Assembly: GCF_004010195.1 (NCBI RefSeq) | Contig: NC_057719.1 | Coordinates: forward strand, 32,432,988-32,494,005 | Length of the DNA stretch: 61,018 bases | DNA from: Chiloscyllium plagiosum | Taxonomy: Eukaryota | Direction: 5' to 3' | Part shown: piece by piece, positions 3,615 through 60,444 of the stretch | Numbering within the stretch: the stretch's first letter is position 1 | How the letters are laid out: each line of letters starts with the position of its first letter | Notes under the pieces: generated by a model | What the model saw: only the letters and a program-made list of their open reading frames with translations | The model's database searches: none | Told to the model about the DNA's origin: nothing | Position numbers and translations under genes: made by a program

Positions 3615-3962
3615 CTTTTACAAATCGAGGTTTGAATGATCCCATGGAGTGACCTCTGAAATTCTTGCTTGCTATTGGCCAGGAGGAGCTTTGCAATCTG
3701 GGCTTTCCATGGATGACCAAAAAGATCCAGAAAAGTTCTGGAAGGTACTTGAAGATGAGTTCAAAGCAAAAATTAAGTTCAGGATGAACAAACTCCAACT
3801 CATCTTATACAAACCCCAACCCCAAGAGTTTATTAAGCAGTTTGGTGGAAGAAAGGGAAGGACTGTAACTTTCCAAATGAGGAATTTTCAAATAAATTCA
3901 TCAAATTAGTAATCACCTCTCCACAATTAAACCCTGTAGGAAGACTCTTCTGGATGAGAAAA

Positions 3963-4421
3963 GGGGCAGCACAGTGGCTCAGTGGTTAACACTACTGCCT
4001 CACAACACCAAGGACCCAGGTTCAATTCCAGCCTTGGGTGACTGTCTGTATGGAGTTTGCACATTCTCCCCGTGTCTGCATGGGTTTCCTCTGAGTACTC
4101 TGGTTTCCTCCAGGTAAAAACAATGACTGCAGATGCTGGAAACCAGATTCTGGATTAGTGGTGCTGGAAGAACACAGCAGTTCAGGCAGCATTCGAGAAG
4201 CAGTAAAATCGCGCTGCGGGCAAAAGCCCCACAATCCAAGGATGTGCCGGTTAGCTGAATCAGCCAAGCTAAATTGCCCATAGTGTTCAGGGATGTGTAG
4301 GTTAGGTACATTAGTTAGGGAAAATGTAGAGTAATAGGGTAGGGGAATAGGTCTGGTTGGATTTGTGGATTTGTTGGGCCGAAGGGCCTGGTTCCACACT
4401 GTAGGGATTATATTCTATTCT
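3963..4421 (+). mobile_element. Full-length HE1-type SINE with nested PLE fragment
   Basis: A box gtggctcagtgg, B box ggttcaattcc, body tgcacattctccccgtgtctgc, CR1-like tail gggccgaagggcctg and (ttcta)n. Confidence 0.9.
4111..4229 (-). mobile_element. Family A-like PLE pLTR fragment inside the HE1 SINE, truncated in hammerhead stem II
   Basis: Minus strand reads gggcttttgcccg...tgctgcctgaactgctgtgttcttccagcacc...ccagcatctgcagtc. It interrupts ggtttcctcc|cacaatccaa. Confidence 0.75.
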
Positions 4422-5499
4422 TAAAAGTGATCATACCACTGGCATAATACTTTTGATGGATACAAGAGTGATGTCTTGTGGCAGATCACAACAATTAAGT
4501 GCTTTATGTGTAGCCAACATGATGGCCAAGTCAGTAAAGAGCACTGTACAAACAAAGCCGTGAACACATCCTGCTTGTTACACTTACTCAACAGCGGTCC
4601 AGGTTTTATTTGCATTTGTAATATTTGTGATATTTGTGAAGTCTATTACACGCATGTAGAAGTAATCTGATTCTAAAGGCCAAGCCAGACACCAGAACAA
4701 AATACAGGTGACTGACAAACTGTATAACACCATAACACTAACAGCAAGAAGAGTGTTAAGGCGGTATACAAATGAAGTTCAACATTAAGTAAGAAATAGA
4801 GAAATTTTACAAGAAAACCAAGTTAATTTCACACCATGTCAGTAATGTACAGCAATAAGAAGCTTTTACGACTCCTAAAGTTACATCCTGAAAGACAGAA
4901 TGACATCTCTTAAAAGATAAAACTGACACAGGGATCCAGTGCTAAAATATTACTCCATATCCTTAAAAGATATGTATCTTAGCAAGTGATGGTCCATGAT
5001 ACAATCTGTGAGAGACTATCGCACATCATCAATTCTGTGCATTGGCAAAGTCACACTGCAGTGCAAGTACACTTCCTGAATCTTCTACCTGGTAGATGCC
5101 AATGGTCTAGCAATGTCAGGGCTACCAGTATGTGTAAATCTCAGTACAGTCATAATTCATGAGATTCAAAGCACACTCACTGTAGTAGAACAGACCACAT
5201 ATGACACACTTGAATCAGTCAAGACCTTAAAAAGCAGTACCACTTTGATGTAGTCAAAAACTTAAAGGATGACACAATATTTCATCTCAAGGATGATGTT
5301 ATGGGGAAAAGGCAGGAAAATAGAGTTGAGGATTATCAGACTAGCCTTGATCTCATTCAGATTTGATGGGCTGAATGGCCTGATTCTGCTCCTTCGTCTT
5401 GTGCTTTTACAAGGAAATAATTCCTATATTTGTAAAACCAAGACGCACATACTCCCTTTCGATACTGCTTTGTATTTCAAGTCATGAGCTATTGGAGCT

Positions 5500-6470
5500 A
5501 ATTCCTCATGAACTCATGGCTAATGATATTTACAAGGCAAGGTAAGATTTTTAATGGTATTTTCCAGATGGCATGAAAATGAGTGAAAGAGCAAAGTGTG
5601 TGGAGGACCTGAAAGTATGCAGAGGAATAGAGATAGATTAAGTGAGTGGGCAAGGGTCTGCAAATGGAATACAATGTTGATAAATGTGAGGTCATCCATT
5701 TTGGTCAAAATAACAGCAAAATGGACTATTATTTAAATGGTGCAAACATGAGCATGTAGCTGTGCAGAGGGACCTGCGTATCCTTGTGCATGAATCACAA
5801 AAAGTTGGTTTGCAGGTGCAGCAGGTATTTCAGAAGGCAAATGAATGTTGCCTTTATTGCTAGAGGGATGGAATTTAAAAATAGGGAAATTATGCTGCAA
5901 CTGTATAGTGAGGCCATACCTGGAGTACTTTGTACAGTTTTGGTCTCCTTACTTGAGAAAGGGTGTATTGGCACTGGAGGGTGTGAAGAACGGGTTCCCT
6001 ATGTTGATTCCAGATTTGAGAGGGTTAGCGTATGAGGAGAGACTGAGTAGACTGGGGCAATACTCATTGGAATTTAGAAAAATGAAGAGGAATCTTATAG
6101 AAACTGATAAAATTATGAAGGAATAGATAAGATAGAAGCAGGGAGGTTGTTACCACTGGCTGGTGAAACTAGAACTAGAAGGCATAGCCTCAAAATAAGG
6201 GGGAGTAGAATTAGGACTTAGTTGAGGAGGAACTTCTTCACCCAAAGTGTTGTGAATCTATGGAATTCCCTGCTCAGTGAAGCAGTTGAGGCAACCTTGT
6301 TGAATGTTTTTAAGGCAAAAATAGATGTTTTTGAATAGTAAAGGAATTAAGGGTTATAGTGAGTGGGCACGTAAGTGGAGCTAAGTCTATAAAAAGATCA
6401 GCCATGATCTTATTGAATGGCAGACGAGGCTGGATGAGATAGATGGCCTACTCATGCTCCTAGTTCTTAT
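5500..6470 (+). mobile_element. CR1 LINE, 5'-truncated (RT C-terminus + 3' UTR)
   Basis: WQMEYNVDKCEVIHFG, VRPYLEYFVQFWSPYLRK and YEERLSRLGQYSLEFRK; 3' UTR gatcagccatgatcttattgaatgg. Confidence 0.92.
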
Positions 6471-8690: not shown

Positions 8691-8871
8691 TGGATTTATA
8701 ATTGCCTTCATTCATCCCAGATAGCCATTAATTGCCCATTCAATACTTAAATGGACATTCTCATATGTTGGAGGTAGTGGGAGTAGTCACCTCAGGCTCT
8801 ATGTTTCCCCTAATTACCCTAAATCCTGGTGAATATGTTGCAACAAAATTGGGTTTAAAGACATTAAAAAA

Positions 8872-9208
8872 AACAAAATAAAATAACTGCAAATGCTGGA
8901 AATCAGAAACAAAAACAAAAATTGCGGGAAAAACTCATGATGTGAAGGAGCTGGTGTTGGACTGGGGTGGACAAAGTTAAAAATCACACAACACCAGGTT
9001 ATAGTCCAACAGGTTTATTTGGAAGCACTAGCTTTTGGAGATTGCTCCTTTATCAGGTAGCTGATGAAGGAGCGGCGCTCTGAAAGCTAGTGCTTCCAAA
9101 CAACCTATTGGACTACAACCTGGTGTTGTGTGATTTTTACCTCTGGAAAATCTCAGAAAGTCTGGCAGCATCTGTGGAGACAAAGTAGAGTTAACATTTT
9201 GGTCCACT
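8872..9208 (-). mobile_element. Family D PLE pLTR fragment hosting the family B hairpin insertion
   Basis: actgcaaatgctggaaatcag...ggaaaaactc [insert] ...gtctggcagcatctgtggagacaaagtagagttaac; homologous to 22795-22927 and 26960-27095. Confidence 0.7.
8935..9140. mobile_element. Palindromic double-hammerhead mini-element, family B, copy 1
   Basis: About 80-bp inverted arms 8978-9056/9061-9139 around a gtag loop, plus a 43-nt unpaired tail. CTGATGA-A-GGAGC-ggc-GCTCT-GAAA-GCTA at 9061-9089, with a degenerate mirror copy on the minus strand. Confidence 0.85.
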
Positions 9209-9984: not shown

Positions 9985-10455
9985 ACATAAGAAAAGAAGC
10001 AGAAGTAGGCTATCTCACCCGTTGTCATTCAATAAGATCATGGCTGATCCTGTCATGGATTCAGCTCTACTTACCTGCCCACTCACCATGACCATTAATT
10101 CCTTTATTGTTCAAAAATCTATCTATCTTTACCTTAAAAACATTCAATGAGGTCGCCTCAACTGCTTCACTGGGCAGGGAATTCCACAGATTCACAACTC
10201 TTTGGATGAAGAAGTTCCTCCTCAACTCAGTCTTAAATCTGCTACCCCTTATTTTGAGGCTATGTCCCCACGTTCTACTTTCACCTGCCAGTGGTATCCA
10301 CCTCCCTGCTTCTATCTTACTTATTCCCTTCATAATTTTGTGTCTTTCTACAAGATTACCCTTCAATTCTTCTAAATTCCAATGAGTATAGTCCCAGTCC
10401 ACTCAATTTTTCCTCATAAGCCAACCCTCTCAACTCTGGAATCAAATTAATGAAT
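9985..10455 (-). mobile_element. CR1 LINE 3' fragment
   Basis: ORF 10067-10402 contains SRTWGHSLKIRGSRFKTELRRNFFIQRVVNLWNSLP; same subfamily as 5500-6470. Confidence 0.92.
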
Positions 10456-10631
10456 ATTCAATGTTATTACTACTCTTTCCTGTTATACTTGCAGTATGGC
10501 TCCAAACCGAAGTAAGATTCTGCATACACTCCCCTATCCTATGCTATTCTCGTCTCAATGTGGAGAAAAGCAACAATTCACAGAAAAACTAGCAGAAAGA
10601 TCAAGGCCAAAGGACAAGTTGCAAATAAATA

Positions 10632-10843
10632 GTCATGATTTTAAGGTGCCAGCGTTGGACTGGGGTGGATAAAGTTAAAAAAATACACAACACCAGGTTA
10701 TAGTCCAACGGGTTTATTTGGAAGTACTAGCTTTCGGAGTGCCGCTCCATCATCACAACCACCTGTTGAAGGAGCAATGCTGCAAAACTAGTGCTCCCAA
10801 ATAAACCTGTTGGACTATAATCTGGTGTTGTGTGATTTTTAAC
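10632..10843. mobile_element. Palindromic double-hammerhead mini-element, family B, copy 2, 10-bp TSD
   Basis: TSD caaataaata at 10622-10631 and 10844-10853; arms and tail as in copy 1. Confidence 0.88.
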
Positions 10844-11674
10844 CAAATAAATATTGTGGTGGTCATTACATAAAATGAAAGAAAGCATGTCCAGCTTGGG
10901 AGAAACAGTATTTTAACTGTAATCTAAATTATTTTGCAAGTTAGTATTTAACTGGGAAGAAGACAAATAAGTCTATCAAGCTTCTGGAGACAATTACCAC
11001 AGTGACATTGTAGTGAGGATTTTACGTAATCAAGTGTGACTACTAGACAGATGTCAGATGAAAATCTGGATGATTTAATCAAGCCTTAGAGCAGGTTGGA
11101 AACTTCAAATCTCAAGGAGAAAAAAATGGCTTGTAATAAAGGCAATGTAGACAGTGGAACAAGAGCTGCTGTGCCAGATAGACACTAATACTTCGAATAA
11201 CATTGAGTTTCAAGGCTTTTTATAGAAGTATGTCAGATGGCGATCTAAAAGTGAAACCACCTGAAGGAAAAATTGGGATTCCGGGATTGGTTGATGCTCA
11301 CCTTGAGAGGACAAATTAAACTGAGGGCCCAATACTACGGCAAGGCAGAAAGTTCCAAGTATTAGGCACAAAGATAAAGCCACTCATTTCAGCAAAAACT
11401 GGTCAAGAGCTTGGACTGGAAAAGCTAAAATGTTTCAGACTACAGTTGCAGTGTTTTGCGGGTCACATTGACTGATGAATAGACAAACAAACAGCTTGAG
11501 ACAGAAAGAGTTCAATTGCAGGAACACAAATAAAATTTGATTCCTAAATAAAGAAAAAAGAAAATCTTGCCTTGTCAAACACAGCAATGAAAAGAAAATG
11601 GTGTCTAACGCCACAGTGTAAAGCAGCTAAGAAGGTGTTCAACCAGAACCAAAGAGTACATCAATCCAACTGGC

Positions 11675-22312: not shown

Positions 22313-22794
22313 TTATTTGAAAGAGCCATTGCCTCAGTAAGTGTGATGGGGGTGAGACGTGATGAGGGATTTGCTACAGAAAATAAGCAAAACAAATGAA
22401 CAAGTATTTTCAGCTTTGGAGAAAAGGAAGCTTTGTTCAAGAAGTGTATTGCCAAAATGTAGTGATTGCAATGAGCTCAGCTGGGTAGGTCACAAAGAAG
22501 ATGAGTTCGCTGGTTGAGGCTGTTAATCTGGTCCAACAGGCAGTCCTGGCTGACAGGTAAGACACGGAGTGACAGACCTCCTGTTCACTCTGAGAGCTGG
22601 CTCTGAGTGTCAAGTACTATGGACATGTAAATAAAGTGTCATTTGGTGACAGGATACTGGCTTCAGTGGAATTATTTCACCAACATTATTCAAGGTTCAT
22701 CTCTGGCTTTAAAGTAAGATTCAAAAACAAATTGCAGTTTTTTCTTATTAATGTAACAAACATTAGAAGTAGAAATAAACACAGCTATTAATAA

Positions 22795-22927
22795 AAACCA
22801 AAAGAACTCCAGATGCTGTAAAACAGAAACAAAAACAGTAATTGCTGGAAAAGATCAGCAGATCTGACAGCATCTGTGGAGAGAAATTACAGTTAATGTT
22901 ATGGCTCTGGTGGCCCTTCCATAGAAC
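22795..22927 (-). mobile_element. Solo PLE pLTR, family D, 14-bp TSD
   Basis: TSD acagctattaataa at 22781-22794 and 22926-22939; the 5' end begins at the degenerate hammerhead stem I (gttct). Confidence 0.8.
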
Positions 22928-23367
22928 AGCTATTAATAATATTGGTATTATCAAGAAAATATAAGTCAGAGCAGTAGGTGGAGCTGAGAGGATGTAGAAT
23001 ATTTTGGAAAGAAAGGACTATTAAATTGGGCAGGTTTATCACCTTATCAATAAGGGTTGGCATAATTACTTAAAGTAACAGAAGGTGCTATGGCATAACT
23101 GTTACAAGTAAAAGTGAATAAAAATAGCAACGTCTACAGCAGAATCGTGGGAGGTGCTGCAGAAGAGTGAAATATACAATGAAAAAGCATGAAACCCTTA
23201 GGGTAAAATGTAAGAGCAACAAGCCCAGAGAAATATGGATGTTTAGAAGTGTTTAGGACTGGTTAAGGAGAAGGGGAGAGACAGATAATAAGTTCAAAGT
23301 TTGGGAGAAGATTTGTAGCTCGGGTGCTCGTGTTGTGGTTCTGTTCGCCGAGCTGGGAATTTGTGTT

Positions 23368-23407
23368 GCAGACGTTTCGTCCCCTGTCTAGGTGACATCC
23401 TCAGTGC
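23368..23407 (-). ncRNA. Minimal type I hammerhead ribozyme, family C, core intact
   Basis: GCA-CUGAGGA-U-GUCACCU-agac-AGGGGAC-GAAA-CGUC-UGC: stem I GCA/UGC, stem II with one mismatch, palindromic ACGU in place of stem III. Confidence 0.8.
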
Positions 23408-24266
23408 TTGGGACCCTCCTGTGAAGCGCTTCTGTGATGTTTTCTCCACCATTTATAGTGACTTGTACCTGCCACTTCCAGTTGTCAGTTCCAGCTGTCC
23501 GCTACAGTGGCCGGTATATTGGGTCCAGGTCGATGTGCTTATTGATTGAATCTGTGGATGAGTGCCATGCCTCTAGGAATTCCCTGGCTGTTCTCTGTTT
23601 GGCTTTTGTACACCAGAACTGCAAAAAGAGGAAGAAGAACACCTATATAATGTATTCGCCAAAAATGGATACCCCCGCAATTTCATCAACAGATGCCTAA
23701 GGGAAAGACAACGGAATGAGGACATGCCACAACCCAAAGGACTAGCCACACTACCATACATCAAAAACATTTCCGAACTGACAGCCAGACTACTGCGACC
23801 GCTAGGACTCATAACAGCACACAAACCAACAACCACTCTCAGACAATAACTCACCAGGAGGAAGAACCCGATACCCAACATGAGCAAAACCAATGTAGCG
23901 TACAAATTCCCATGCAAGGATGCACAAAACACTACATAGGACAAACAGGAAGACAGCTAACGGTCCGCATCCATGAACACCAACTAGCCACGAAACGACA
24001 TGACCAGCTATCCTTAGTAGCCACACACTCAGATGACAAGCAACATGAGTTCGACTGGGACAACACTACTACTTTAGGACAAGCCAAACAGAGAACAGCC
24101 AGGGAATTCCTAGATTCCACAGATTCAATCAATAAGCACATCGACCTGGACCCAATATACCGGCCACTGCAGCAGACAGCTGGAACTGACAATCGGAAGC
24201 GGCAGGTACAAATCACTATAAATGGCGGAGGAAACATCACAGAAGCGCTTCACAGGAGGCTCCCAA

Positions 24267-24306
24267 GCACTGAGGATGTCACCTAGACAGGGGACGCAAC
24301 GTCTGC
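24267..24306 (+). ncRNA. Hammerhead ribozyme, family C, with core mutation GAAA to GCAA
   Basis: Identical to the 23368-23407 motif except at position 24297. Confidence 0.7.
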
Positions 24307-26959
24307 AACACAAATTCCCAGCTCGGCGAACAGAACCACAACAATAGATAATAAGTGCAAAGGAAGTAGGACAATGGAGGAGCATGGAAAGTGCAGCAGG
24401 GAGCTCAAGAAAGCAATTAGGAGAGGAAAGCCGGGGCATGAAAAAGTGCTGTTGGGCAAGATTAGGGAAAATCCCAAGACATCCTACAAATATTTCAAGG
24501 GGACAAGAATAACTAAGGTAAGAGTAGGGCCATTAGGGACCAACAGGACAATCATTGCATAAAGCTGGAGGACATTGATAGTGTGTTAAGTGAATACTTC
24601 ACATCTGTCTTTACTCGGGGAAGTAGATGCAAGTACAGTATTTGAGAAGGTGGATTGTGAAGTCCTTGAGCAGTTTGACATAGGGAGTGAGGAAGTACTG
24701 GATTTTTTGGTGGATTTGAAAGTAGACAAATCCTCAGGCTTGGATAAGGTGTATCCTAGGGTGCTGGGGAGGAAATAACAGGGATGCTGATTCCAGATTT
24801 TTAAATTGTTTCTTGCCTCAGGAGTGGTGCCAAAGGACTGAAGGAGAGCAAATGTGGATCCATTTTACAAAAAGGGTGGTAGAGATAGATTCGGAAACTG
24901 TAGACCAGAGAGTCTCGGATCAGTGGTAGGGAAACTATTGGAAAAAATAGTGAAGAAGAAAATTAATCTTCATATACAGAGGTAAATTTTAATCAGGGAT
25001 CATCAGCTTGGCTTTGACAGAGAGAGGATATGCCTAACAAATTTGATTAAATTTGTTTAAGCAGCTGGCCAAGTGTGTAGATGAGGGTATGGCGGTTCAT
25101 GTAGTTTATATGGTCTTCAGCAGAGCCATTGACAAATCTCACATAGGAAACTGAGAAAGAAAGTAAAAGCTATGGGATACTGAATAATTTGGCAAATTGG
25201 ATCCAAATTTGGCTCGGCGGTGGGAGTCAGAGGGTGGTAGTAGAAAGCTATTTGTGTGACTGGAGACCAATATCCAGTAGCGTTCCACAGGGACAAATGC
25301 TGGGTCCTTTAATATTTGTGATATTCATAATGAGAATATGGGGTGAGTGATAAGTAAATTTGCGCATGACACACAGATTTTCCGGGTGGTTGACAGTGAG
25401 GAGGAAGGCCTCAGGTTCAGGAGGTCTCGGTGAGTTAGTCAAATGGGCAGATCAGTGTCAAAAGGAATTTAGCTCCGATAAATGTTGGATGATGTAGTTT
25501 GAAAGAAGCAACAAGACAAGGATGTACTCAATGAATGGCAGGTCACTAGGAAGCTCAGAGGAACATAAAGTGCATGTCCACAGACCCTTGAAAGTGGCAG
25601 AACAGGTTAACTAGGAGGGCTAGTCAAGATGGCATGCTGAATGCTTGCCTTATCAGTCGAGGTTTGGATCATAAGAGCGGGGAGGTTATGTGGGAGCTGT
25701 AAGTAACTTGCTTAGGCCACAGCTGGAGTACTGAGAGCAGTTCTGGTTACCACACTATTGGGAGGATGTGAGTGCACTGGAGAGAGTGCAGAGGAGATTC
25801 ACCAGGATGTTGCCTGGGATGGAGCATTTCAGCTATGAAGAGAGGCTAATTAGGCTCATGTTGTTTTCTTTGGAGCAGAGAAGGTTGAGGTAGGAACTGA
25901 GAGACGTATAGGATCATGACAGGCATGGACAGTGTGAATAGAAAGTAAATGCTCCCCTTAGCCAAAGGGTCGATAGCAAGGGGAACATAATTTTAAAGTG
26001 AAAGGCAAGAGGCTTAGAGGGGATTTGGGGAAAAAAGTTTTTCACCCAAAGGGTGGTGGGGGTTGTGAAATGAACTGCCTGGAAAGATAGTTGTTGCAGG
26101 AAACCCCACAACCTTTGAAGTATTTGGATGAACACTGAAAGTGTCATAACATTCAAGGCTATAGCCCCATAGCTGGAAACTGGGACTAGTGTAAGTTGTA
26201 GCATATCTTTGGCAGTACAGACTTAATGGGCCAAAGTGCCTCTTTTATAGTGTATGATTCTTTGATCATATCTGGGAACTATGATGCTTTAGCAATTTGA
26301 AATTACTATTGAAACCAGATTTTCTCATAACACTCACAGTCTGCATCTGGCGCGTTTGCCTTAAATTCAAATTGGCGTGGATATAAGTGACCCTCGACAG
26401 CCTTTCATTCCGGCTACTGTATTTGGGCCATTTGTATTTTCTCACCATCTCTTGAGGAAGCAGTCAATTTAGAATGGTTTTCGATATTTTGCAGTCTTAA
26501 ATCTTTTGGAAAATACAGAATCATAGAATGGTTCCAGCAGACATTAATTTCATCGAGTCCACGCTAAATCTGTCTCTCAAGGGCTATTAGGGATGGGGAA
26601 GTAAATGTAATCTGGTCAGTGATACCCACATGTTGGAAAGAAACAAAAAATAGAAATGAATTAAATTTAACTAGTTTCAATTCCTCACTCTTGCAGACAC
26701 GCAAATCTTTACTTTCAGAAGTTTATCCAATTTCCATTTGAAGACAACAATTACATCTGACTTTGTCACTCCTGCAAGCACAAAGATCAGAACGACTTGC
26801 TGCATTAAAAAAAAAGCTTCTCCTTCACATCATCTTTGTTTTCTATCATCAATCAGCTAACAACTATAATTCTCATCGTCCACAATAGACTCATTAAACC
26901 ACATGGTTCAGGACAACACTAGAATCTTGGGGCATCCAGAAGATCAACTTGCCCAACAA

Positions 26960-27095
26960 GTTCTGAAGGAGAGTCATTGGACCCTAAATGTTAACTCTGC
27001 TTTCCCTCCACAGATGCTGCTAGACTTGCTGGGTTTTTCCAATAATTTCTGTTTTGGTTTCTGATTTCCAACATTTTCAGTTCTTTGGGTTGTTT
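26960..27095 (+). mobile_element. Solo PLE pLTR, family D, degenerate hammerhead at 5' end
   Basis: gtt-ctgaagg-agagtc-attg-gaccc-taaa-tgtt-aac, then tccacagatgctgctagacttgctg. Confidence 0.7.
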
Positions 27096-28194
27096 TTTGC
27101 CAAGTGTGAGCTATGGTTGCAGCTCAAATTTTACAGGCAAAATTGACATTCTGTAATTTGAGCACGAGATTGTAACTGCAGCAACTGGAATTCACACCTT
27201 GTACTTCCATAGTAATTTCATCTGCAGATTTTTATCATTTGGGCCAATGTATGATGCAGGAAATCAGGGGAGGAATTTCATTGGATCTTTATTCCGATTT
27301 GCAGCTGAAATCATTGACTGAATGTAAAATTGGCTGCATCCTGCATCAGCTAAAGAACACAAGCAAATCACAGGAAACAATATTTGTTAGTGCAAAGGTC
27401 AAGTGCTGTGAGGGTCAAATGTATTGTGCACATGTGCTGAGAACTGACAATATTGGATGGATGGGGCACAAGACTCAAGGTTTTATTTGTGACTCTTAAC
27501 TGACTCCAGGGAAAATAGAATCCACAAAGTAACTTGATAATAAATCAAACAATATCTGAACACACAACTGTTGCAGTTTTACAAATAATCCATTGTAAAG
27601 AAAGGAATACATGTGTGGTTCAGTAGAAGAATGAACCGTTCAGATTTACAAATCCTTATTTATTGATTGATTTAAAATCCATTTGCGGTTTAGAATTTTC
27701 TAATAGGGTTTAAATGACAAAACTTTCCAATCCTTTATGTGCTTGTCAGTGCTGTGTTTTAAAAGAAACTGCAGCCTCTTGTGTTATGGTGGCCTTAGTT
27801 ATAATCTAGGGTCTTGCTGAGAACATACTCAGTTTATTACTTGTCACTTCTATGCCATTATAACAGATTACTGAAGTGTAAAGTGTTTTGGGCCTGAGGG
27901 CAGATTACAAATTTAGAATAGATCATACTCTGTCATTTTGTGATCTGTCCTTTGAAGAAAAGCATAACAGAGTTCAGCAATATTTTTTATATTGCATTTA
28001 TTTCTTTAATGTGGAGTACTGCTATACAAATTTTATTGATGGACCTTTAGATAAAAGTGACTGCCTCCGATAACCCATATGGCAAAGAAACAAAAAGTTT
28101 GTATTGTTCTTGTTCCTATTGGAAGTATATAATATTTTTGTTGTTTTTTGCTCCTATTTTGTTTTTGCCACTGTGATCATAATAAAGTACATTA

Positions 28195-29640: not shown

Positions 29641-29645
29641 TATCA

Positions 29646-29774
29646 TTCCTGATTAAGGGCTTATGCCCGAAACATTGACTCTACTGCTCCTCGGATGCTG
29701 TTTGATCTGCTGTGGTTTTCCAGTGCCACACTTTTTGACTCTTATCTCCAGCATCTGCAGTCCTTACTTTCTCC
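29646..29774 (+). mobile_element. Solo PLE pLTR, family A, starting at the hammerhead, 13-bp TSD with one mismatch
   Basis: TSD ttttagcatatca (29633-29645) and ttttagcttatca (29775-29787); ttc-CTGATTA-A-GGGC-ttat-GCCC-GAAA-catt. Confidence 0.82.
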
Positions 29775-29853
29775 TTTTAGCTTATCAAGTTTATTCATCA
29801 TATTATGCATGTATATACTATATAAAATATACATTGTATTTGTGTGTTTGTAT

Positions 29854-33961: not shown

Positions 33962-34352
33962 GTAGAATCCCAGCAACTCCACACCGACTCTCCGAAGAGG
34001 AACCCACCCAGACTCATTCCCTTAATTCTCTACATTTCCCCTGACTAATGCACCTAACACTATGAGCAATTTAGCATGACCAATCTACCTAACCTGCGCA
34101 TCTTTGGATTGTGGGAGGAAACCGGAGCACCCAGAGGAAACCACGCAGACACGAATGCACCTAACACTATAGACAATTTAGCATGGCCAATTCACCTGAC
34201 CTGCACATTTTTGGATTGTGGGAGGAAACCCACACAGACACGGGGAGAATGAACAAATTCCACACAGACAGTCACCCGAGGCTGGAATCAAACCCAGGTC
34301 CCTGGTGCTGTGAGGCTGCAGTGCTAACCTCTGAGCCACTGTGTCGCCCACT
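33962..34352 (-). mobile_element. HE1-type SINE with internal tandem duplication
   Basis: aatgcacctaacactat...cagacacg occurs twice (about 34047-34153 and 34154-34242). Confidence 0.88.
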
Positions 34353-34607
34353 GCCGTATCACATGGAGTGAATCAAATTGGCTGAAAGCTGGTATGTGTG
34401 ATGCTAGGGACCACTGGAGAAGGTCAGGATGGATCATTCACTCGACATTTCTGGCTAACAAATTGTTGCAATGCTTCAGCCTTATGTTTTGCATTAATAT
34501 TCTAGGTTCTCCTATCAAGGATGTGGACATTTGTGGAGCCTCCTCCTGTTAGTTGTCAATGTCAGTAACTAGCACTGTGAGTGTAAAAATGGAGCACATT
34601 GTACCTT

Positions 34608-34693
34608 GGAGAAAGTGAGGACTGCAGATGCTGGAGATCAGAGCTGAAAAATGTGTTGCCGGAAAAGCGCAGCAGGTGAGGCAGCATCCAAGG
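34608..34693 (-). mobile_element. Family A pLTR tail fragment without hammerhead
   Basis: ggagaaagtgaggactgcagatgctggagatcagag...gcagcatccaagg. Confidence 0.8.
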
Positions 34694-34736
34694 TCCTCTG
34701 CACAAGCAATTCTTTCTCGTTTACTATTACCTGACA

Positions 34737-35050
34737 GTTAGATTAGATTACATTACAGCATGGAAACAGGCCCTTCGGCCGAACAAGTCCACACCGACCC
34801 GCCGAAGCGTAACCCACCCATACCCCTACATTTATCCCTTACCTAACACTATGGACAATTTAGCATGGCCAATTCACCTGACCTGCACATCTTTGGACTG
34901 TGGGAGGAAACCGGAGCACCCGGAGGAAACCCACGCAGACACGGGGAGAACGTGCAAACTCCACACAGTCAGTCGCCTGAGGCGGGAATTGAACCCGGGT
35001 CTCTGGCGCTGTGAGGCAGCAGTGCTAACCACTGTGCCGCTGTGCTGCCC
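34737..35050 (-). mobile_element. Full-length young HE1-type SINE
   Basis: A and B boxes on the minus strand, (taatc)n tail; near-identical to 43941-44244. Confidence 0.95.
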
Positions 35051-36779
35051 AGTTCAAAGATCTGAAAGAAGAATGCACAAAACTAAAGTTGCTTAAAGAA
35101 ATGGCAAGAAAAACAAGAGCTGTGTCTGCTTCTCCATGGGCACAACGACATCAAGGCATGCCTCATATTTTCCAATTGAATCCAGCCGTTAGAACATAGC
35201 CCTCGATGTTTCGCTGATCTGTGGAACCAATCTGAAGTCCATCGAGCCTACACTATTCCATTTGCATCCATATGCCCATCTTGTTAAGGCAGCACCTTTC
35301 CTTTCAAGAGAAAAGCAAGTGTGTATGAGAATGAATGATCTGGTTGTCATGGTTGAATAACTGACAGGTTGCACATGCAGTATAATGTAGGTGTGAGACT
35401 TTTAGCAATGATAAATAGATGAGGTTGAGCTATGAATACTCGGAATGAATTGAAATAGAGAGATTATTGATAGGTGAACATGAAGGTTATTGTGATGTTT
35501 CTCATGTGTTCATGCAGTACTTCTGGCTAAAAAAATTAATTGTGAATGATTCAGCCCTATCCTTTGCATTGCTATTCTAGGCTTTCCCATCATTGAGGAT
35601 GTTTCTTGGCATAATGGGTCAGGCAGTAGGCCTGTAGTGCCACTGTGATTACGTCTAGAAGCACAATATGGATAAAGTTCACTTCTCTTCCTTTTCACCT
35701 CCTATACTAACATCTTCAGTACAACGTCTGACAACCTTGATGCTTCCTACTTTTAAATGGTGCCATTCTTCACAAGATCTTGGAGACCCCTACTCATGCA
35801 CGCAGACCCTCAACTGTGCATTTATCATGAGCTGCATGCTAAAAGCATTTAAATAAGCAATTAATACGGAATTTGTGTGCTGATGGCATCAGAAGTAACA
35901 GAAGACATTAAAGTGCAGCTCAATCCCACTGCTTGCTTTGGGGTTGTCCAAATGTTGTCTCCAATGTATTTCAATAGATTCCAAAGTTTATTCCACTTTT
36001 ACACAACTGGCATAGGATAAGAGGTTTAAATGTTGAGCATTGAATCTTAATAGGAAAAGGTGTCATCGCAGGCATCACTTCAAGATAAATGCTCCAATTT
36101 TAAGCCAATGTTTTTGGAGCTATCTGATGCAGCTATTACACCCCTGCTTGGGATATGGTGACTGGACCATCGTGCTTTTCCTTTCTGAATAAGGCAGTCT
36201 CCATTCATCTGCTCAAAAATCCTCACCTGCTTCTTGCCTATGATTTTGAAGCTTGAGGAGGCCATGCAGTGTCTGGTAAACAGCAGCCCCCGTGTCCCAA
36301 TTGAACCCACAAAATCATTCAATTAAATACATTCCAAAGCAATACAATATGATTGACAGAATGCACGTAGAGCATATGTGGGCAAAAATAGGAAAAAAAG
36401 TTCTCATTTCAAGTTTCCAGAATGACTAACAAGTGAGCAGTGGATGTTTAGGAATCTGAAGATGTGATAGGAATGCAGATCCGTACCATTTTATATATTT
36501 TTCAGAATAGGTGCCTCTATATAAAAGAAATGCTATTTACTTCAATTGGCCACAGATGTCCTTTGGACTGTCACTACTAAAACTCAAAATTGTAACTAAA
36601 ATTGCTCCTCTCAATAATTTTACTAAAATATTAATGCAAGTAAAAAAAAAAAGCAAATCCATCTTGTCATTGTGCTGACTGCTATTATTGGCAGAAGAAA
36701 TTTTCCCTCCCCATGTTCTTAATAGCCCTTTGTGTTATACAAAAAACCTTAGTGCTGCAGTACGGTTCACTAATTTGTA

Positions 36780-38986
36780 CAAACGATCAGTCCTCAGCAA
36801 AGGCCTTACCTTTGTCGCCCTCCGTCCACACATCAATGAATTCATTACGCGTTGTGACGTAGAACACTTCTTCCACTGCCTCCACCTCCAAACTTACTTT
36901 TTCAATCAGGACTCCTGCTTCACTCACCTCCAACACACTCCATCCACCTGGACACCCTGTGCTGGCCTATTACCCACCCTCGACCTCTTCATTTCCAACT
37001 GCCGAAGAAACATTAACCGCCTCAACTTGTCTAACCCCCTCCCCCACTCCAACCTCTCACCCTCACAACGCACAGCCCTATACTCCACCTGCTCCAATCC
37101 CAACCTCAACATCAAGCCAGTAGATAAAGGAGGTGCAGTGGTAGTTTGGCACACTGACCTCTACATCGCTGAAGCCAGACGCCAACTCGAAGACACCTCC
37201 TCCTACTGCCCCCTTGACCATGACCCCACCCCCATCACCAAACCATCATCTCCTAGACCATACACAACCTCATCACCTCAGGACACCTCTCCCACCCACA
37301 GCTTCCAACCTCATAGTCCGGGAACTCTGCACTGCCCAATTCAACCTCCTTTCCAAGATCCAAGCCTGACCACCCCAGCCGAACCATTGTCTCAGCCTGC
37401 TCCTGCCCCACCGAACACATCTCCGCCTACCTCGACATTGTCCTATCCCTCCATTTCCATGAACTCCCCACATACGTTCGAGACACCACCCACACCCTCC
37501 ACCTCCTCCAAGATTTCTGTTTCCCCGGCCCCCAACACCTCATCTTCACCATGGACATCCAATCCCTCGACACCTCCATCTGCCATGAACAGGGCTTCCA
37601 AGCCTTCCGTTTCTTCCTCTCCCGATGTCCTCAACAGTACCCTTCTGCTGAACTGGTCCTCACCCTTAACAATTTCTCCCTTGAATCCTCCCACTTCCTC
37701 CAGATCAAAGGAGTAGTCATGGGCACACGTATGGGCCCCAGCTATGCCTGTCTCTTTGTCGGCTACGTAGAACAGTCCATCATCCGTAGTTACCCAGGTA
37801 CCACTCCCCACCTCTTCCTCTGCTACATTGATGACTGCGTCGGTGCCAAATCGTACTCCCGCGAGAAGGTCGAGCAGTTCATCAACTTCACCAACACATT
37901 CCACACTGACCTTCAAATCACCTGGACCATCTCTGACACCTCCCTCCCCTTCCTGGACCTCTCCATCTCCATCAATGACGACCGACTTGACACTGACATT
38001 TTTTACAAACCCACCGACTCCCGCAGCTACCTGGATTACACCCCTTCCCACCCTACCTCCTGCAAAAATGTCATCCCATATTCCCAATTCCTCCGCCTTC
38101 GCCGTATCTGCTCCCAGGAGGACCAGTTCCACCAAGGAACACACCAGATGGCCTCCTTCTTTAGAGACCGCAATTTCCCTTCCCACGTGGTTAAAGATGC
38201 CCTCCAACACATATCATCCACATCCTGCACCTCTGCCCTCAAACCCCACCCCTCCAACCATAACAAGGACAGAAACCCCCTGGTCCTCACCTTCCAACCT
38301 ACCAAACTTCGCATAAACCGCATCATCACTGACATTTCCGCCACCTCCAAAAATACCCCACCACCAGGGATATATTTCCCTCCCCACACCTTTCCGCTTT
38401 CCACAAAGACCGTTCCCTCCGTGACTACCTGGTCAGGTCCACATCCCCAAAAAGCCACCCTCCCCTCCTGGCATCTTCCTTTGCCACCGCAGGAATTGCA
38501 AAACCTGTGCCCACACCTCCTCCCTCAGTGCCATCCAAGGGCCCAAAGGAACTTCCACATCTATCAAAGTTTCACCTGCACATCCACCAATGTCATTTAT
38601 TGTATCCATTGCTCCCGATGCGGTCTCCTTTACATTGGGGAGACTGGACGCCTACCCACAGAGTGCTTTAGGGAACATCTCTGGAACACCCTCACCAATC
38701 AACTGCACCGCCCAGTGGCCCAACATTTCAACTCCCCCTCCCACTCTGCTGAGGACATGCAGGTCCTGGGCCCCCACCTCCATCCACCTATTGCACTCTT
38801 GGCTACCTTCTCCCCAGGTCCAACCCCCCTCCCATTTAACTCTCCACCCCAGAGGCTCCCTCCCTTCATTCCTGATGAAGAGCTTTTCCCCGAAACAACG
38901 ATTTTCCTGCTTCTCGGATGCTGCCTGACCGGCTGTGCTTTTCCAGCACCACTCTGATCTCCAGCATTTGCAGTCCTCACTTTTGC
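36780..38986 (+). mobile_element. Penelope-like element (Neptune-type), long RT-GIY-YIG ORF with frameshifts, 3' pLTR family A
   Basis: SVLSKGLTF, IKPVDKGGAVVV, KGVVMGTRMGPSYACLF, YIDD (37824-37835), LPFLDL, CHRRNCKTC zinc-finger-like linker (about 38471-38513), NVIYCIHCSRCGLLYIGETGR; CTGATGA at 38872 and GAAA at 38892. Confidence 0.95.
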
Positions 38987-39175
38987 GTATATTATTTTAA
39001 AGTCTAGCTGGAGCTGTCCATTTGTTCCCTAAAGATAATAATTACATTTAGCAATGTTTAATCATCTAACTTATACCACAAGCTCAGTCAATTGGATCCT
39101 AATAATGATAACACCCCTCATTTTGTTCATGCTTATCAAAGTACGTGAGGTTTTTGTGTAATTCCTTGCTTGGAA

Positions 39176-39469
39176 TTAGATTAGATTACTTACAGTGTGG
39201 AAATAGGCCCTTCGGCCCAACAAGTTCACACCGACCCACCCCCCTACATTTACCCCTTCACCTAACACTACGGGCAATTTAGCACGGCCAATTCACCTAA
39301 CCTGCACATTTTTGGACTGCGGGAAGAAACTGGAGCACCTGGAGAAAACCCATGCACTCACTGGGAGAATGTGCAAACCCCACACAATCAGTCGCCTGAG
39401 GTGGGAATTGAACCCAGGTCTCTGGCGCTGTGAGGCAGCAGTGCTAACCACTGTGCCACCGTGCCACCC
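39176..39469 (-). mobile_element. HE1-type SINE
   Basis: Homologous to 34737-35050 with a small deletion. Confidence 0.93.
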
Positions 39470-39825
39470 ACTAATTCTGAGGGCAATCCATAATTAACAC
39501 CAAGTATTGTGCATAGAGGCATAAAAACTATCAAGCCACGATAGAGTTTATGTTTCCTGGGCAAATATAACCCTCCTGGCATAAATGGTTGGTTTCAAAA
39601 ATCTATTATTAATATTCATCCCACTTGGGGCATAGTATTTATTCTGAACATGTAAAACTAATGCCCGTAATTATAAGCCCTACCTGGTTATAAGGTAAGT
39701 TGGGAAATATCAATTTGGCTCATCAAATCATTAAGATCGTAAGAGGAAGGAAAGATTGAGAGAGATCAGGAGTTCTAAAGTCTTGAGGACTTGGCAACAA
39801 AATCAGTCAAGTCAGAAACTGTACT

Positions 39826-43720: not shown

Positions 43721-43940
43721 CAGCTTGAATGAATCTCACCCTCATTGTTCTTTCAAAGGGACTAAAATTATCAGGTGCAAGCAAAGGAGACTGTGCCTCA
43801 TCTCTCTGTATTTCTAACAAAAATAATGCATTTTGCCACGAACTTTCATCGATTAATAGCATTCTCACTAAAAAGTCAGAAGCTTCCAGGTTTCAATCCT
43901 TCCTCTAGGATTTAACCACACAGCCTAAGTTAGCAAATTA

Positions 43941-44244
43941 GGTGGCACGGTTGTTAGCACTGCTGCCTCACAGCGCCAGAGACCCGGATTCAATTCCCAC
44001 CTCAGGCGACTGACTGTGTGGAGTTTGTACGTTCTCCCCGTATCTGCGTGGGTTTCCTCCGGGTGCTCCGGTTTCCTCCCACAGTCCAAAGATGTGCAGG
44101 TCAGGTGAATTGGCCATGCTAAATTGCCCGTAGTGTTAGGTAAGGGGTAAATGTAGGGGTATGGGTGGGTTGCGCTTCGGCGGGTCGGTGTGGACTTGTT
44201 GGGCCGAAGGGCCTGTTTCCACACTGTAATGTAATCTAATCTAA
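43941..44244 (+). mobile_element. Young HE1-type SINE
   Basis: B box ggattcaattcc, conserved body, tail gggccgaagggcctgtttccacactg(taatc)n. Confidence 0.95.
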
Positions 44245-44691
44245 GTGTTGCATTGTCAGAAAAGATGTAGAAACTTGTAATACAAAGGCATCCTACCTAT
44301 GATGTCTTTTGGAGAAACATATGGTATCATTGACAACCACATCTCTTTCGTTAGTAACTGTCTCAGTCACCAGCTTGAATCATTGTCATGAAATATTATA
44401 TGGATAAACAGACATATGTTACCAGACATGTTGAGTACTTCAACATTTTCTGTCTTCTTATTGAATTATTCAGAGATAGAGGCTCTATTGGTACAATGGT
44501 AGTGTTCTGCCTCTAGGCCAAAAGATTTGGATTCAAGTCCTACCCTGGACCTCAGTCAAATGTATAGCAAGTTTTTTTTTAAATCCTCAATATCATTGTC
44601 ACAGCAGTGGGATCTGAAAGGATTGCCAGAAATTATTGAAGCCCCATTGTTGCCAATAGCTAACAGGGGGTAAACCAGAGCCAGGCCCTTA

Positions 44692-53744: not shown

Positions 53745-54160
53745 TTACAGCATGGAAACAGACCCTTCAGTACAACCAGTCCATGCCGAACATAATCTCA
53801 AATTAAAATGGGCCACCTGCGTGCTCCTGGCCCATATCCTTCCAAATCTTTCCGATTTGTGTACATATCCAAATCTCCTTTAAACGCTGTAATTGTACCG
53901 ACTTCCATCATTTCCTCTGGACATTCGTTTCACACGCGTGAAATATCCTCTGTGTGAAAATTTTGCATCTCATATCTTTTTTAACTCTCTCTCCCTTTCA
54001 CCTTAAATGTGTGCCGCCTAGTCTTGAAATCCTCCATCTTAGGAAGGCACCAACTACCATTAACTCTATCTATACCCTTTGTTATTTTATAAACTTCTAT
54101 TAGGTTGCCTCTCAACCTCCTATGCTCCAGTGGAAAAAGATCCCAGCCTATCCAGCCTTT
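53745..54160 (-). mobile_element. CR1/HER1 3' fragment
   Basis: acagcatggaaacagacccttc tail; minus-strand KERLDRLG..LEHRRLRGNLIEVYKI. Confidence 0.88.
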
Positions 54161-54168
54161 CTTTATGT

Positions 54169-54369
54169 ATCACACAACACCGGGTTATAGTCCAGCAGGT
54201 TTGTTTGGAAGCACTAACTTTCAGAGCGCTGCTTCTTCATCAGGTGCTTGTGTGAAGGAGCAGCATTCTGAAAGCTAGTGCTTTCAAATAAACCTCCTTG
54301 GACTATAATCTGGTGTTGTGTGATTTTTAACTTTGTCCACCCCAGTCCAACACCAGCATCTCCAAATCA
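54169..54369. mobile_element. Palindromic hammerhead mini-element, family B, copy 3, 13-bp TSD
   Basis: TSD ttctttatgtatc at 54159-54171 and 54370-54382; tail on the right. Confidence 0.88.
54209..54249 (-). ncRNA. Minimal type I hammerhead ribozyme, family B, with 6-bp stem I
   Basis: AAGCAC-CUGAUGA-A-GAAGC-agc-GCUCU-GAAA-GUUA-GUGCUU. Confidence 0.72.
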
Positions 54370-55244
54370 TTCTTTATGTATCTTATTCTAGTCAATTGGT
54401 GGCATCAGTCTTCTGAACCTTTAAAAATAGCATTGGCCCATGTTATTTAGAGAATTATTTTTGATCAAAGGTATAACTTTGAAAGGATCTGAGTTACGAA
54501 CAGATGTGCTCTTATCAAAATAAATCCTTTTTAAAGTGTGGATCTTGTATCAAATGTAGAGCACTTGAGGAGCCTCACTGAATGTTTGTGAGTCTTGCTT
54601 TCAACCACCCTTAGCAACCCAGCAGACACTAAAGACAGTGGAGACTACAAATGTTGAGGATGACTGCAGATAACTGCAAGTGATCTCAATATCAATGGTT
54701 GCAACTGTTAATGGACCTACTTCAGCAGTAACACTTAGTAAGGATATTAAGAGACCTTTTAGCTGTTCCATTTTGAAAAGAAGTAACTAACACATGGGTC
54801 ACAAGCGATACATGAGCAAGAAAAAGCAAGACCTGACAATATTTTTTTGGATTCTTTTTATCACTGCAAGTAACTATTGAATTCTAAGAAAAGTACAATG
54901 AATATGCATTGAGATGAATGATGTGCATTCAATTAAAATGTTTACAGAAAAGTAAAATATTTGATCTAACATTTAAGCATGATTCAGAGAAGGAAATTTA
55001 TATAACACTGTCTGGGACAGCAGCAAAGAAAGCCTTGTGTATCAAAAAACATTCAAATTGTAGTTGTAAGTTGCTTTTTAATTACGTTATAATTTAGTTA
55101 GTCCATTCCTCATAAAACAAAAGACAGATAACACATACCTTCCTGTTAAGTATAAAGAAAAGCAGATCATAAACATTCTGGGGGGTCACTGTGAACCAGA
55201 AATGTAACTGGACCAGTCATATATAAACATTGTGATTATAAGAA

Positions 55245-56790: not shown

Positions 56791-59690
56791 TTATGGTTCA
56801 AGCTTTCTATTTATTTAAGAAATGGCAATATCCCAATAGATTCTTTCCTCAGCTCCCTCTTCTCCAGAGAACAGAATCTCAAACTCTTCATATAATTTCA
56901 AATACTCTGTCTCCAAAACCACCTCCTTACTACTTTACTCTGTTTTAACTACCTACACTGATTTACTGAATTAATGCAATGAAATTTGAGGTGATGTTTC
57001 ACTTTTTAAAATTACTTTTCTAATTGTTAAACTTCTGCCAGATGAATACTGCTCCTTTCCTTTAACAGAATTGGACAATACAGAACTGAAAGTCCTGGCC
57101 CATATTTCAATCACTAGAATCATTGTCAACCACATCCAGGAAATAGTTTTCCAGTGGCAGGAGCTCAGGCTACCTCTCTGCCGTAGATAATTGGGTTGAC
57201 CTAAAAGGAATTCATGTTGCCTTGAGTTCAGCCGTTGTCCCTTGTCAGCTGTCACCTAACAGCAGATACACCTTTCAATAGTTTCTTCCATCTGGCAACT
57301 GTATTTTCTTTCTGAGAGGGCCTTTACTTTTGACTTTTTCTTGATGGCTGATGTTCCTGAGAGATTTTAGTCAACTTGATAGGTTGGGAATGATTAAATG
57401 TTCACTGTGTAGAATATCATCCTCAGTGACAGCAAACCAGTTACAGTTGCCAGTAGTCTGCTTTGAACCTGTGCTGCTGAGTGGAACTCCAGACACAATG
57501 ACCATTTTTACACATCTAAAACATCTCCCCAGGAGTACTCCTGATCTCCTGTTGAAATTGTGACAGATCATGAAAACTCTCAGTGAAGGCAAGTATCTGT
57601 AAACTGAGCTCATAAATCAAGTCTATTCCACATATCCATAGGCCCTGTAGGAATTTATGAATTATATTCATGTCTTCTGAACTCTTATCTAGTTCATTCA
57701 AAATTATTCAAAAAACTCGCATAACTAATCTTAAAATAGATTGTTCACATTTACAAAGACAGACAATGTTATTTAACTTCTGGTACAAGCACACTGCAGT
57801 TTGTTATTAACGTGAACCATAGTTAAAGATGATGAAACACATCAACCCTTCCTCAACATCAAACTTATATTAATCAGTTTAGAAACTATCCATCTCATTC
57901 TCAGGTTGTCCTATTGGCTACGATGGACATCTTCTGTGAGAGATGTTAGATAATAAACGGAATCAGAAAGACAGAATGGGTAAAGCTGACCAATTTTGGT
58001 GGCACAACGCCAGATTAACCTCAGATCATTGCCAAGTGTCTAGGGCAGCCAAATAAAATAAGTGTTAGGTCCTTCCATATGCTGATGAGAAACCTCTGTT
58101 GGAATTTTCCCATTCCAAATCAGACAGGGTTGGCAAACATAACGCCAGCCAAGTGGTGCAGCCAGAAGGCCCTTTTTCTATTTCCACCAGACAGACAGGC
58201 AGCAGGCCTGATACTGTCCTATCTTCTAGCCATCATTGGGGAATGTATTTGTGTTCTCCTTCTTGGAAAGTTTTCTGAATTTCTTTATCGGTGTTTAGCA
58301 GCTGTTGAGTTTCTACATATTGCGTGGAAGTGGAAGACATTAAGTAATTTTGTTGAACACCTTTGATTGCTATTAAGTTCAGAAATATTCTGAGGTCAGA
58401 TTGATTTTTGCAGGATTGATGGCTCTTGAATGCAGCTTTTACAAAGAACTTCACTAATATGTTCATAAATTGGAAAAGGGTTGGGATGGATAGTTGGCTT
58501 CCCTGGACACTAGGCAAATATCTGAGGCTAATCTGGCATAGTGATGCACAATTGGCCAGTTTTACCCACAATTCCTTCTGGATTTATTTATCACCTAACT
58601 TTTACGGAAGATGTTCATTGTAGCAAAGAGGGTGATCTGAGAATGATATTGATAATTTCTCAACTGACTGATCTTAGATTGGTGTTGGGGGGAGGTGACA
58701 TTGTGGAAACGTGGATGATGAATATAGTGAGGGGCTTGAAGGGAAAAACCTTTAAATCTTAACACAATATTACAATGTTCTAAGGACATTTTAGCCATGC
58801 TTTGAGGTCTTCTGGAAGGAATTGGACGTTTAACTTGCCTGCTCCAGAATCAGTCTGCCTCCAACCTCAGTTCTGACTAATTGGATAACAGACCAGCCTT
58901 TGGGTCAATTAAGTCTCTAGTCAATTAAGCTGCATTCCCTGGCAGCATGGTGACACAGATGGATGGGAACGTGATTCAGATTCAGTCTCAATTTTCATCT
59001 CCCGGAGGAAAGCTTCAGCTCTAAGCTTTCTGTTCCAAAATGATGAACTAGATGAACTACAATCTCTAAAGTGGTTCAGGTGTATGCCCCTTTCCTCAAA
59101 GGTTTTCTGGGTGTTTTTTGTGACATAAAAATGTGATTTCTTTTTTTTTTGAACGGAGCCAGAAGGAGTTGAAATGATTCTTTTGGCTTTATGGCAGAGG
59201 ACTGATGGTGCCTTGTGATCCAACCCAATTCCATTTTCCTTTCCACCTTTAACAGCATTGCAGTTGTGGGGTCAACTGGTTCAAAAATGACCAATGACCA
59301 ATGAGCAAACTACTTCTGGAACCCAGACACCCATCCAGAAGCAGCTCACTCAAATTATTGCAATGGTCCAGGTACAGATAAGCCTCATGTTTCTGGACAC
59401 TGTCTGCACAGTAATGGTTTCACATCTGACAATAAGCTGTACCCCTTTTCTATCCCAATATGTTCTAGTCTCTCCTCTTCTAACATCCAAAGACCACTTT
59501 AAATATGACATTTGTCTTGATAGACAACATTTCATAAAACAATCTTTACTTAGATTCTGTATTCAATTTTTCCAAGCTCTTCCATTGGTGCTTCCAAGTC
59601 ACCTGACCAATGTTTAGTGCTATTTAGGCAGAGGAGAGTAGTCAACTGTAAGAATCCATTTTGTTACATATCCATGGCACATGTATCTAT

Positions 59691-59898
59691 TTTAAATATC
59701 ACACAAAACCAGGTTATAGTCCAACAGATTTAGTTGAAAGCATTAGCTTTCGGAACGCTGTTCCTTCATCAAGTGGTTGTAGGAGCAACGCACCAAGTGC
59801 TAGTGCTTCCAGGTAAACCTATTGGACCATAATCTGCTGTTGTGTGATTTTTAACTTTGTACACCCCAGTCCAACACTGGCACTTCCAAATCATGACT
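59691..59898. mobile_element. Palindromic hammerhead mini-element, family B, copy 4, 9-bp TSD
   Basis: TSD tgtatctat at 59682-59690 and 59899-59907; arms and tail as in the other copies. Confidence 0.85.
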
Positions 59899-60444
59899 TG
59901 TATCTATGTAATGGTTTTGCAATGACATCCTCAGCACATTCTCAAGTTGTGAATCTAAACTAAATTTAGAATACGGGAGAGAGAAAGGCTTCTGTACATT
60001 TTCACCTTCATTACCATAGATATCCGTTTTAATATTTTTACACTCAGTATATTATCTCTGAACTGGTAACTATTCTCATCTTATCTGCAATAGAATAGGA
60101 TGAGATTCTGCTGAGATTGTAGTGACAAAGCCATTTCACAAGACCATTCAGAGATTATGTCCACAGACAACTTTAATTTCCTGGGCTGTGTGACAGCACA
60201 ACAGCATTGATTGTAATTATATCACAATTGGAGGGGCGAGAAGATATGGTAGTGATTATGCTTCTGTGTAGTCTCCTGAAAATGAGAGACCAGTACAGTC
60301 ATATATTTGCTTATTTCTTTTTGTGTGAGCAATGTTCCAATTTGTTTTGTTAGCTTTCTGAAACATTCAGAAGTGATGTGCATTTATAACAGAAAGTATA
60401 CCAGAAATCTGCCTCTGGGCAGACACACACAGACAACTGCGTCT

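Follow-up and report, generated by a model that had tools for sequence, protein, structure and literature searches.

Published units of endonuclease-containing (EN+) Penelope-like elements (PLEs) such as Pen2a_Av show their end repeats (pLTRs) in head-to-head inverted orientation, one arm being shorter by a one-sided tail of 30-40 bp, together with target-site duplications (TSDs) of about 9-13 bp and with TATA and initiator-like motifs within the pLTR (PMC3846280, PMC8557442). How the tandem and inverted structures of PLEs form is called undefined in PMC8557442. The minimal hammerheads of metazoan PLEs combine a core with an extra base before stem II, a palindromic stem III and a short stem I, and the published set contains motif pairs on opposite strands 100-700 bp apart as well as many single motifs from truncated PLEs (PMC4209133). 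For the PLE Poseidon of Anolis carolinensis (PAc), in vitro work demonstrated that both strands are cut and extended from an uncleaved RNA template, that two internal start sites of reverse transcription flank the tail and that ribozyme cleavage is dispensable (PMC11167929). Animal non-LTR retrozymes are non-coding, carry a type I hammerhead and are related to pLTRs (10.64898/2026.07.22.740005). The inverted pLTR, the tail, the TSD and minimal hammerheads are already published features (PMC3846280, PMC8557442, PMC4209133).

The family analysed here, from the shark Chiloscyllium plagiosum, resembles the EN+ units in layout, tail, TSD and pLTR motifs, the metazoan hammerheads in the core, the extra base before stem II and the palindromic stem III, with a stem I that is likewise short, and the retrozymes in being non-coding with a pLTR-related type I hammerhead. 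Unlike Pen2a_Av-type units, most two-armed shark insertions consist of the pLTR on both sides with no ORF and exist in tens of thousands of copies, and a strict pairing of one tailed with one short arm was counted in the shark family. In PAc, a member of the Poseidon clade, the ORF begins within the hammerhead, whereas the shark family has a CX4CxxC linker and an ATG at the tail end; inverted products are not described in the accessible part of PMC11167929. In contrast to retrozymes, which are head-to-tail tandems by definition (10.64898/2026.07.22.740005), the four copies and 62 sampled pairs described below are head-to-head. Sharks are not named in the accessible part of PMC4209133, the alignments of which may hold shark motifs; the shark copies studied here are decayed. 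In the open-access literature searched, we found no paper on shark Penelope elements with a hammerhead and inverted layout, and the titles and abstract openings mention no cap run-off stubs, pLTR poly(A) site or arms from two templates. The accessible parts of PMC5753468 and PMC8969392 added nothing on hairpins.

The stretch of DNA analysed, the window, comprises 61,018 nucleotides (contig NC_057719.1, positions 32,432,988 to 32,494,005) and contains four head-to-head hairpins of ~205 bp each, with a ~38-nt tail on one arm only, mutually 78-87% alike along their length in alignment. All four, each with two inverted arms and a one-sided tail, lie where a first-pass annotation had reported them. 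Copy 1 (8936-9144) is composed of a tailed arm (8936-9063, sense strand minus), the unpaired tail of which (8936-8975, minus) ends at the position of the parent ORF's ATG, and of a short arm (9061-9144, plus). Numbering the element on the ribozyme (sense) strand with hammerhead C3 as 0, copy 2 (10632-10843) pairs a tailed arm (10634-10755, minus) with a short arm starting at -9 (10754-10843, plus), copy 3 (54169-54370) a short arm starting at -9 (54169-54252, minus) with a tailed arm (54253-54370, plus), and copy 4 (59691-59898) a short arm (59692-59785, minus) with a tailed arm (59778-59895, plus). The AT-rich TSDs proposed earlier are present, measuring 10 bp in copy 2 (10622-10631 and 10844-10853), 13 bp in copy 3 (54159-54171 and 54370-54382) and 9 bp in copy 4 (59682-59690 and 59899-59907; perfect, or 12 bp with one mismatch), and copy 1 has a degenerate one of 11 bp with one mismatch (8927-8937 on the plus strand and 9145-9155). 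The proposal that either strand would yield a long hairpin burying the ribozyme is supported by the inverted-arm alignment and by the folding energy of copy 1 (-120.2 kcal/mol, z = -15.6), which was equalled by 0 of 200 shuffles.

Copy 1 is nested in another dispersed repeat (8856-8934 and 9145-9200) with related pieces at 22776-22927 and 26960-27098, and contigs of run X4 contain other copies of this host repeat without the hairpin insertion. The window holds further repeats: two inverted copies of a ~430-bp repeat (5995-6422 and 10023-10454), 84-88% alike and 3.6 kb apart, and copies at 3957-4424, 34052-35051, 39175-39471 and 43925-44248 of what we take to be a tRNA-like, SINE-type repeat, one pair being 95% alike over 305 nt.

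Under the definitions of PMC8557442, the hairpins are the pLTR (end repeat) of a Neptune/Nematis-type PLE. Following a longer copy in locus L013 upstream revealed a 3' UTR and a decayed ORF that encodes reverse transcriptase (RT), CX4CxxC linker and GIY-YIG, and in longer copies generally the same arm continues into the 3' UTR and then into an ORF with RT and GIY-YIG motifs. Against Pfam, the parent ORF matches RVT_1 at E = 6e-6 and GIY-YIG at E = 0.007, neither score reaching the curated cut-off. RVT_1 occurs in many of its homologs and GIY-YIG in some; among the named homologs, shark proteins match best, followed by turtle ones. The parent copies are decayed, with open frames of up to 480 aa in a single ORF encoding RT and then GIY-YIG, and no intact ORF was found among those examined. 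Two seemingly better long open frames (745 and 1,996 aa) turned out to be runs of N, and a guessed upstream motif with three matches was a junction product instead of parent sequence. In the parent translations we read a CCHH motif, with two Cys inside GIY-YIG, and a DKG motif, following the definitions in PMC8557442, and the CX4CxxC linker between RT and EN in loci L207, L209 and L212 fits the CX2-5CxxC of Neptune/Nematis. A partial tandem pLTR lies upstream of the ORF in 11 of the 30 loci holding its 5' part, the tail being located directly upstream and ending at the ATG, which makes the tailed arm the predicted 5' UTR. In long copies, too, a tailed and a short end stand head-to-head, and either arm may be the longer one. 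BLAST of the DNA behind the tail ends of 138 stubs detected no common sequence; the link to the ORF came from full-length copies. The full-length copies in L356, L365 and L377 run past the predicted start into upstream 3'-UTR sequence, meaning that their template was longer than one unit.

The first-pass annotation had read the hairpins as PLE products, had seen no coding parent in the window and had suggested looking for a linked RT/GIY-YIG ORF; this ORF, although decayed, is present elsewhere in the same genome, and the only protein match within the window belongs to another PLE family of 24-25% identity. The insertions are short, non-coding and numerous and have long inverted repeats, as a MITE of a DNA transposon would, but their TSDs vary in length, the tail is one-sided, the ends are asymmetric, and the arms are directly continuous with an RT and GIY-YIG ORF. 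We regard the MITE explanation as refuted by this parent. The other PLE family in the window (36679-38960, plus) is a decayed RT and GIY-YIG ORF ending in its own hammerhead, which differs in stem II and in the stem III palindrome, with short pieces at about 114-191, 1384-1560, 4112-4210, 29643-29793 and 34608-34693. In a third PLE-like insertion (23331-24343), inverted arms of 228 nt that are 96% alike enclose a 188-aa frame, which contains a GIY-YIG-like motif and has no Pfam match.

Searching the shark's own genome (3.56 Gb) returned many copies at 85-91% identity, and a 25-mer located near the short end occurs 37,229 times without mismatch. Sixteen insertion records in 68 fixed-coordinate stretches (653,480 bases), six of them short pairs, one being doubtful, correspond to about 87,000 insertions genome-wide (50,000-141,000). 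To the fixed stretches, the architecture sample adds the window, a single neighbouring stretch and 30 + 59 loci of contig C1 picked with the 25-mer; it yielded 125 records, namely 62 pairs and 63 single arms, some of which were probably left unpaired by the script. Consisting mostly of exact 25-mer picks from one stretch of contig C1, this sample favours well-kept copies, and its arm ends, taken from BLAST, are uncertain by a few bases. Arms end 3' at about +85 (short) and about +122 (tailed), and the 62 pairs comprise 53 tailed with short, three short with short, one tailed with tailed and five unclassified. TSDs flank 41 of the 61 pairs away from locus edges, 28 of them being 12-13 bp long, with 69% A+T and a length range of 8-22 bp (mode 12-13), against 12 of 300 in a control with mismatched ends. 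Rare two-tailed insertions occur at L002:1460-1710, L023:1457-1802, which holds a further nested arm, and L254:2942-3196. At L233:3258-3572 two adjacent hairpins share the same junction and a 22-bp flanking repeat, probably owing to local duplication.

Since the centres vary from copy to copy and the sizes grade into multi-kb copies with the same two ends, the hairpins look made anew at each insertion, and the distinct family of hairpin retroelements proposed by the first-pass annotation is not supported. A non-autonomous hairpin element that is transcribed whole and mobilised by the PLE protein would be in line with sizes concentrated near 200-225 bp, with both arms starting at -15 or later in 51 of 62 pairs and with a few recurrent junctions. 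Apart from possible rare cases, we consider it very unlikely, as the junction sequences mostly differ among the 62 pairs, those that recur are found in either orientation with respect to the tail, several subfamilies yield the same shape, sizes grade up to kilobases, and the four window copies show no A-to-G editing scars or skew.

The hammerhead core is real at the family level, with conserved core, stem II and palindromic stem III, 58 of 116 arms being core-intact; stem I has three clear pairs, up to five of six with one mismatch. The suggestion of hammerheads on both strands stands for the family and falls for the window copies, in which none of the eight arms is complete in our reading. 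Only the plus arm of copy 1 (9061-9089) has an intact minimal core with stem II and palindromic stem III, with a predicted cut after 9089, but it lacks the 5' strand of stem I. Each of the remaining seven arms is altered in the core or a stem or begins within the core, making working ribozymes in these copies a weak idea. A strict minimal-hammerhead descriptor, the check proposed at first pass, matched the window twice, at 9061 and at 1414, the latter in another family, compared to one match in 40 resampled windows. An Rfam scan gave no hammerhead match and only three weak miRNA matches far below cut-offs.

The arms do not meet at the hammerhead motif, as had been described, but just 5' of it, about -10 to +4 from C3. 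Among 182 arm 5' ends, 71 lie at -10 to +1 (modes -9 and -8), 12 at -15 to -11, six at -40 to -16 and 36 further upstream, 30 at +2 to +23, nine near the predicted ribozyme cut at +24 to +33 and 18 further in, so that the ends pile up 8-9 nt before the hammerhead and not at its cut. This bears on an explanation in which the ribozyme sets the size, a cleaved RNA or a hammerhead dimer of two RNAs defining where the arms stop and join. Junctions within about 10 nt of the core agree with it, as do the dimeric action proposed for minimal hammerheads (PMC4209133) and the mixed arms described below, which suggest two RNAs. With just 9 of 182 arms ending around the cut and 71 ending upstream of or at the core, and with cleavage being unneeded in vitro (PMC11167929), we judge ribozyme sizing to be very unlikely; dimer pairing of uncut RNAs could nevertheless add to the model we prefer.

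The pile-up suggests a candidate transcription start 8 nt before C3. Of 112 long copies, selected by a motif containing the TATA, 106 carry TATAAAT at a distance of 30-32 nt upstream of the A at -8. This A sits in an initiator-like context, and TATA, initiator and cap-G are candidate readings based on general consensus patterns. Reverse transcriptases can copy the cap as an extra base. In 10,824 matches to one subfamily motif, the base before the A at -8 is the parental C in 9,008, G in 1,055 and A or T in 761. The ratio of G to A at this place was 60:12 versus 32:25 and 56:44 at neighbouring control places (hand counts among the first 100 matches listed for each), a G excess with a pooled p = 5e-5 that concerns only about 1,055 of the 10,824 matches of this one motif. 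All of 30 G loci are junctions without parent sequence upstream, whereas changed long copies account for 20 of 28 T and 2 of 5 A loci. Being rich in G, the end of the other arm is able to supply one, which the neighbouring-place controls address only partly; the excess G at the edge is as a cap would leave it and is a candidate trace of this kind. The RNA library, being poly(A)-primed, shows no transcription start sites.

A poly(A) signal is present in 138 of 163 arms (AATAAA in 57, ATTAAA in 81), this being the commonest variant site, and is followed by a GU-rich stretch. In run X8, sense reads end in long A-tails at two positions (+55/+58), which follow the signal by 12-15 nt, with 403 and 515 reads on a parent copy and 747 and 499 on copy 1, where the DNA is not A-rich; in copy 1, with AATAAA at 9014-9019 (minus), the places match 9002 and 8999. 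The reads come from one run sampled at about 2%, are mostly 82-95% alike and in both sets pool many copies, arguing for family-level use of the signal rather than expression of these loci or an active element. Unique DNA around copies 1 and 2 has almost no RNA reads in the ~2% of run X8 sampled, and run X9 gave 0 reads. The poly(A) site lies between the ribozyme and both arm ends.

Whether the two arms come from one or two RNAs can be approached through variant sites. The arms agree in most pairs, 44 of 51 at the A/T variant and 48 of 54 at a 2-nt indel, as one RNA or a fold-back would also give. They differ in 7 of 51 pairs at the A/T variant (1.6% expected, p = 1.5e-5) and in 6 of 54 at the indel, a control run being changed in 2 of 118 arms, and several mixed-arm pairs differ at more than one site. 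Two of the seven A/T mismatches are on a rare haplotype and may be point mutations, which explain some mixed arms, and later gene conversion is a possible source; the mixed arms suggest two different RNAs in a minority of events.

The same data bear on a fold-back, in which one cDNA self-primes and copies itself into the second arm, as proposed for palindromic junctions in rotifer PLEs (PMC3846280). The agreement at variant sites is far above that of random pairs (about 0.5 expected), private changes are shared slightly more often (0.24 versus 0.09 per pair), and many junctions resemble small hairpin loops. Set against this are arms differing at variant sites above background and long copies in which either arm is the longer. 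In addition, of the 53 tailed and short pairs, 22 have a short arm extending 5' beyond the tailed one by at least 6 nt, in 18 the tailed arm extends further and in 13 neither does; in those 22 pairs each arm holds sequence absent from the other, so that neither can be a copy of the other and a fold-back is excluded for them. As a general explanation we regard it as very unlikely.

We favour a model, to which we assign a probability of roughly 70%, according to which the hairpins are doubly truncated head-to-head pLTR insertions. Each would probably arise afresh, with both ends of the cut DNA priming reverse transcription on capped RNA that continues to the 5' end of this template. In each hairpin, the first ~100-130 nt of the mRNA are thus likely to be present as two separate copies joined back to back. 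The parent contains, in this order, TATA, candidate start (-8), hammerhead (0 to +28), poly(A) signal, the ends of the short arm (about +85) and of the tail (about +122), and ATG. The endonuclease would cut with a 12-13-nt stagger, one DNA end would prime at +122 and the other at +85, both cDNAs would stop at or near the cap, and the ends would be trimmed and joined, the two arms probably stemming from two different RNAs in a minority of events. With the poly(A) site (+55/+58) preceding both priming sites, an ordinary mRNA would present these at its 5' end alone, which would account for the abundance of stubs; for long copies, read-through or ribozyme-circularised RNA would be required. By analogy, the anole in vitro work (PMC11167929), with its two internal starts flanking the tail, both strands and an uncleaved RNA template, fits the first steps of this model.

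A more far-reaching joint reading, which we put forward tentatively and hold to be somewhat short of an even chance, compares the pLTR to a retroviral U3-R-U5 with TATA, cap site, ribozyme, poly(A) site and two priming sites, of which the second coincides with the start codon. Up to two RNAs would be bound by a dimeric protein, which would prime both sides of the 12-13-nt staggered cut; from capped linear mRNA nothing but 5'-UTR stubs could arise, and coding copies would depend on read-through or on circles made by the ribozyme.

As a summary, the hairpin family represents a large fossil record of PLE insertion, which predicts two priming sites, cap run-off and sometimes two templates. Such hairpins would be mistaken for MITEs or miRNA precursors in genome annotation. 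With the poly(A) signal being used at the family level, insertions may shorten host transcripts. If the joint reading is true, cap-to-AUG cDNA pairs would number in the tens of thousands in this genome, and the poly(A) signal that each pair carries on both strands could end host transcripts.
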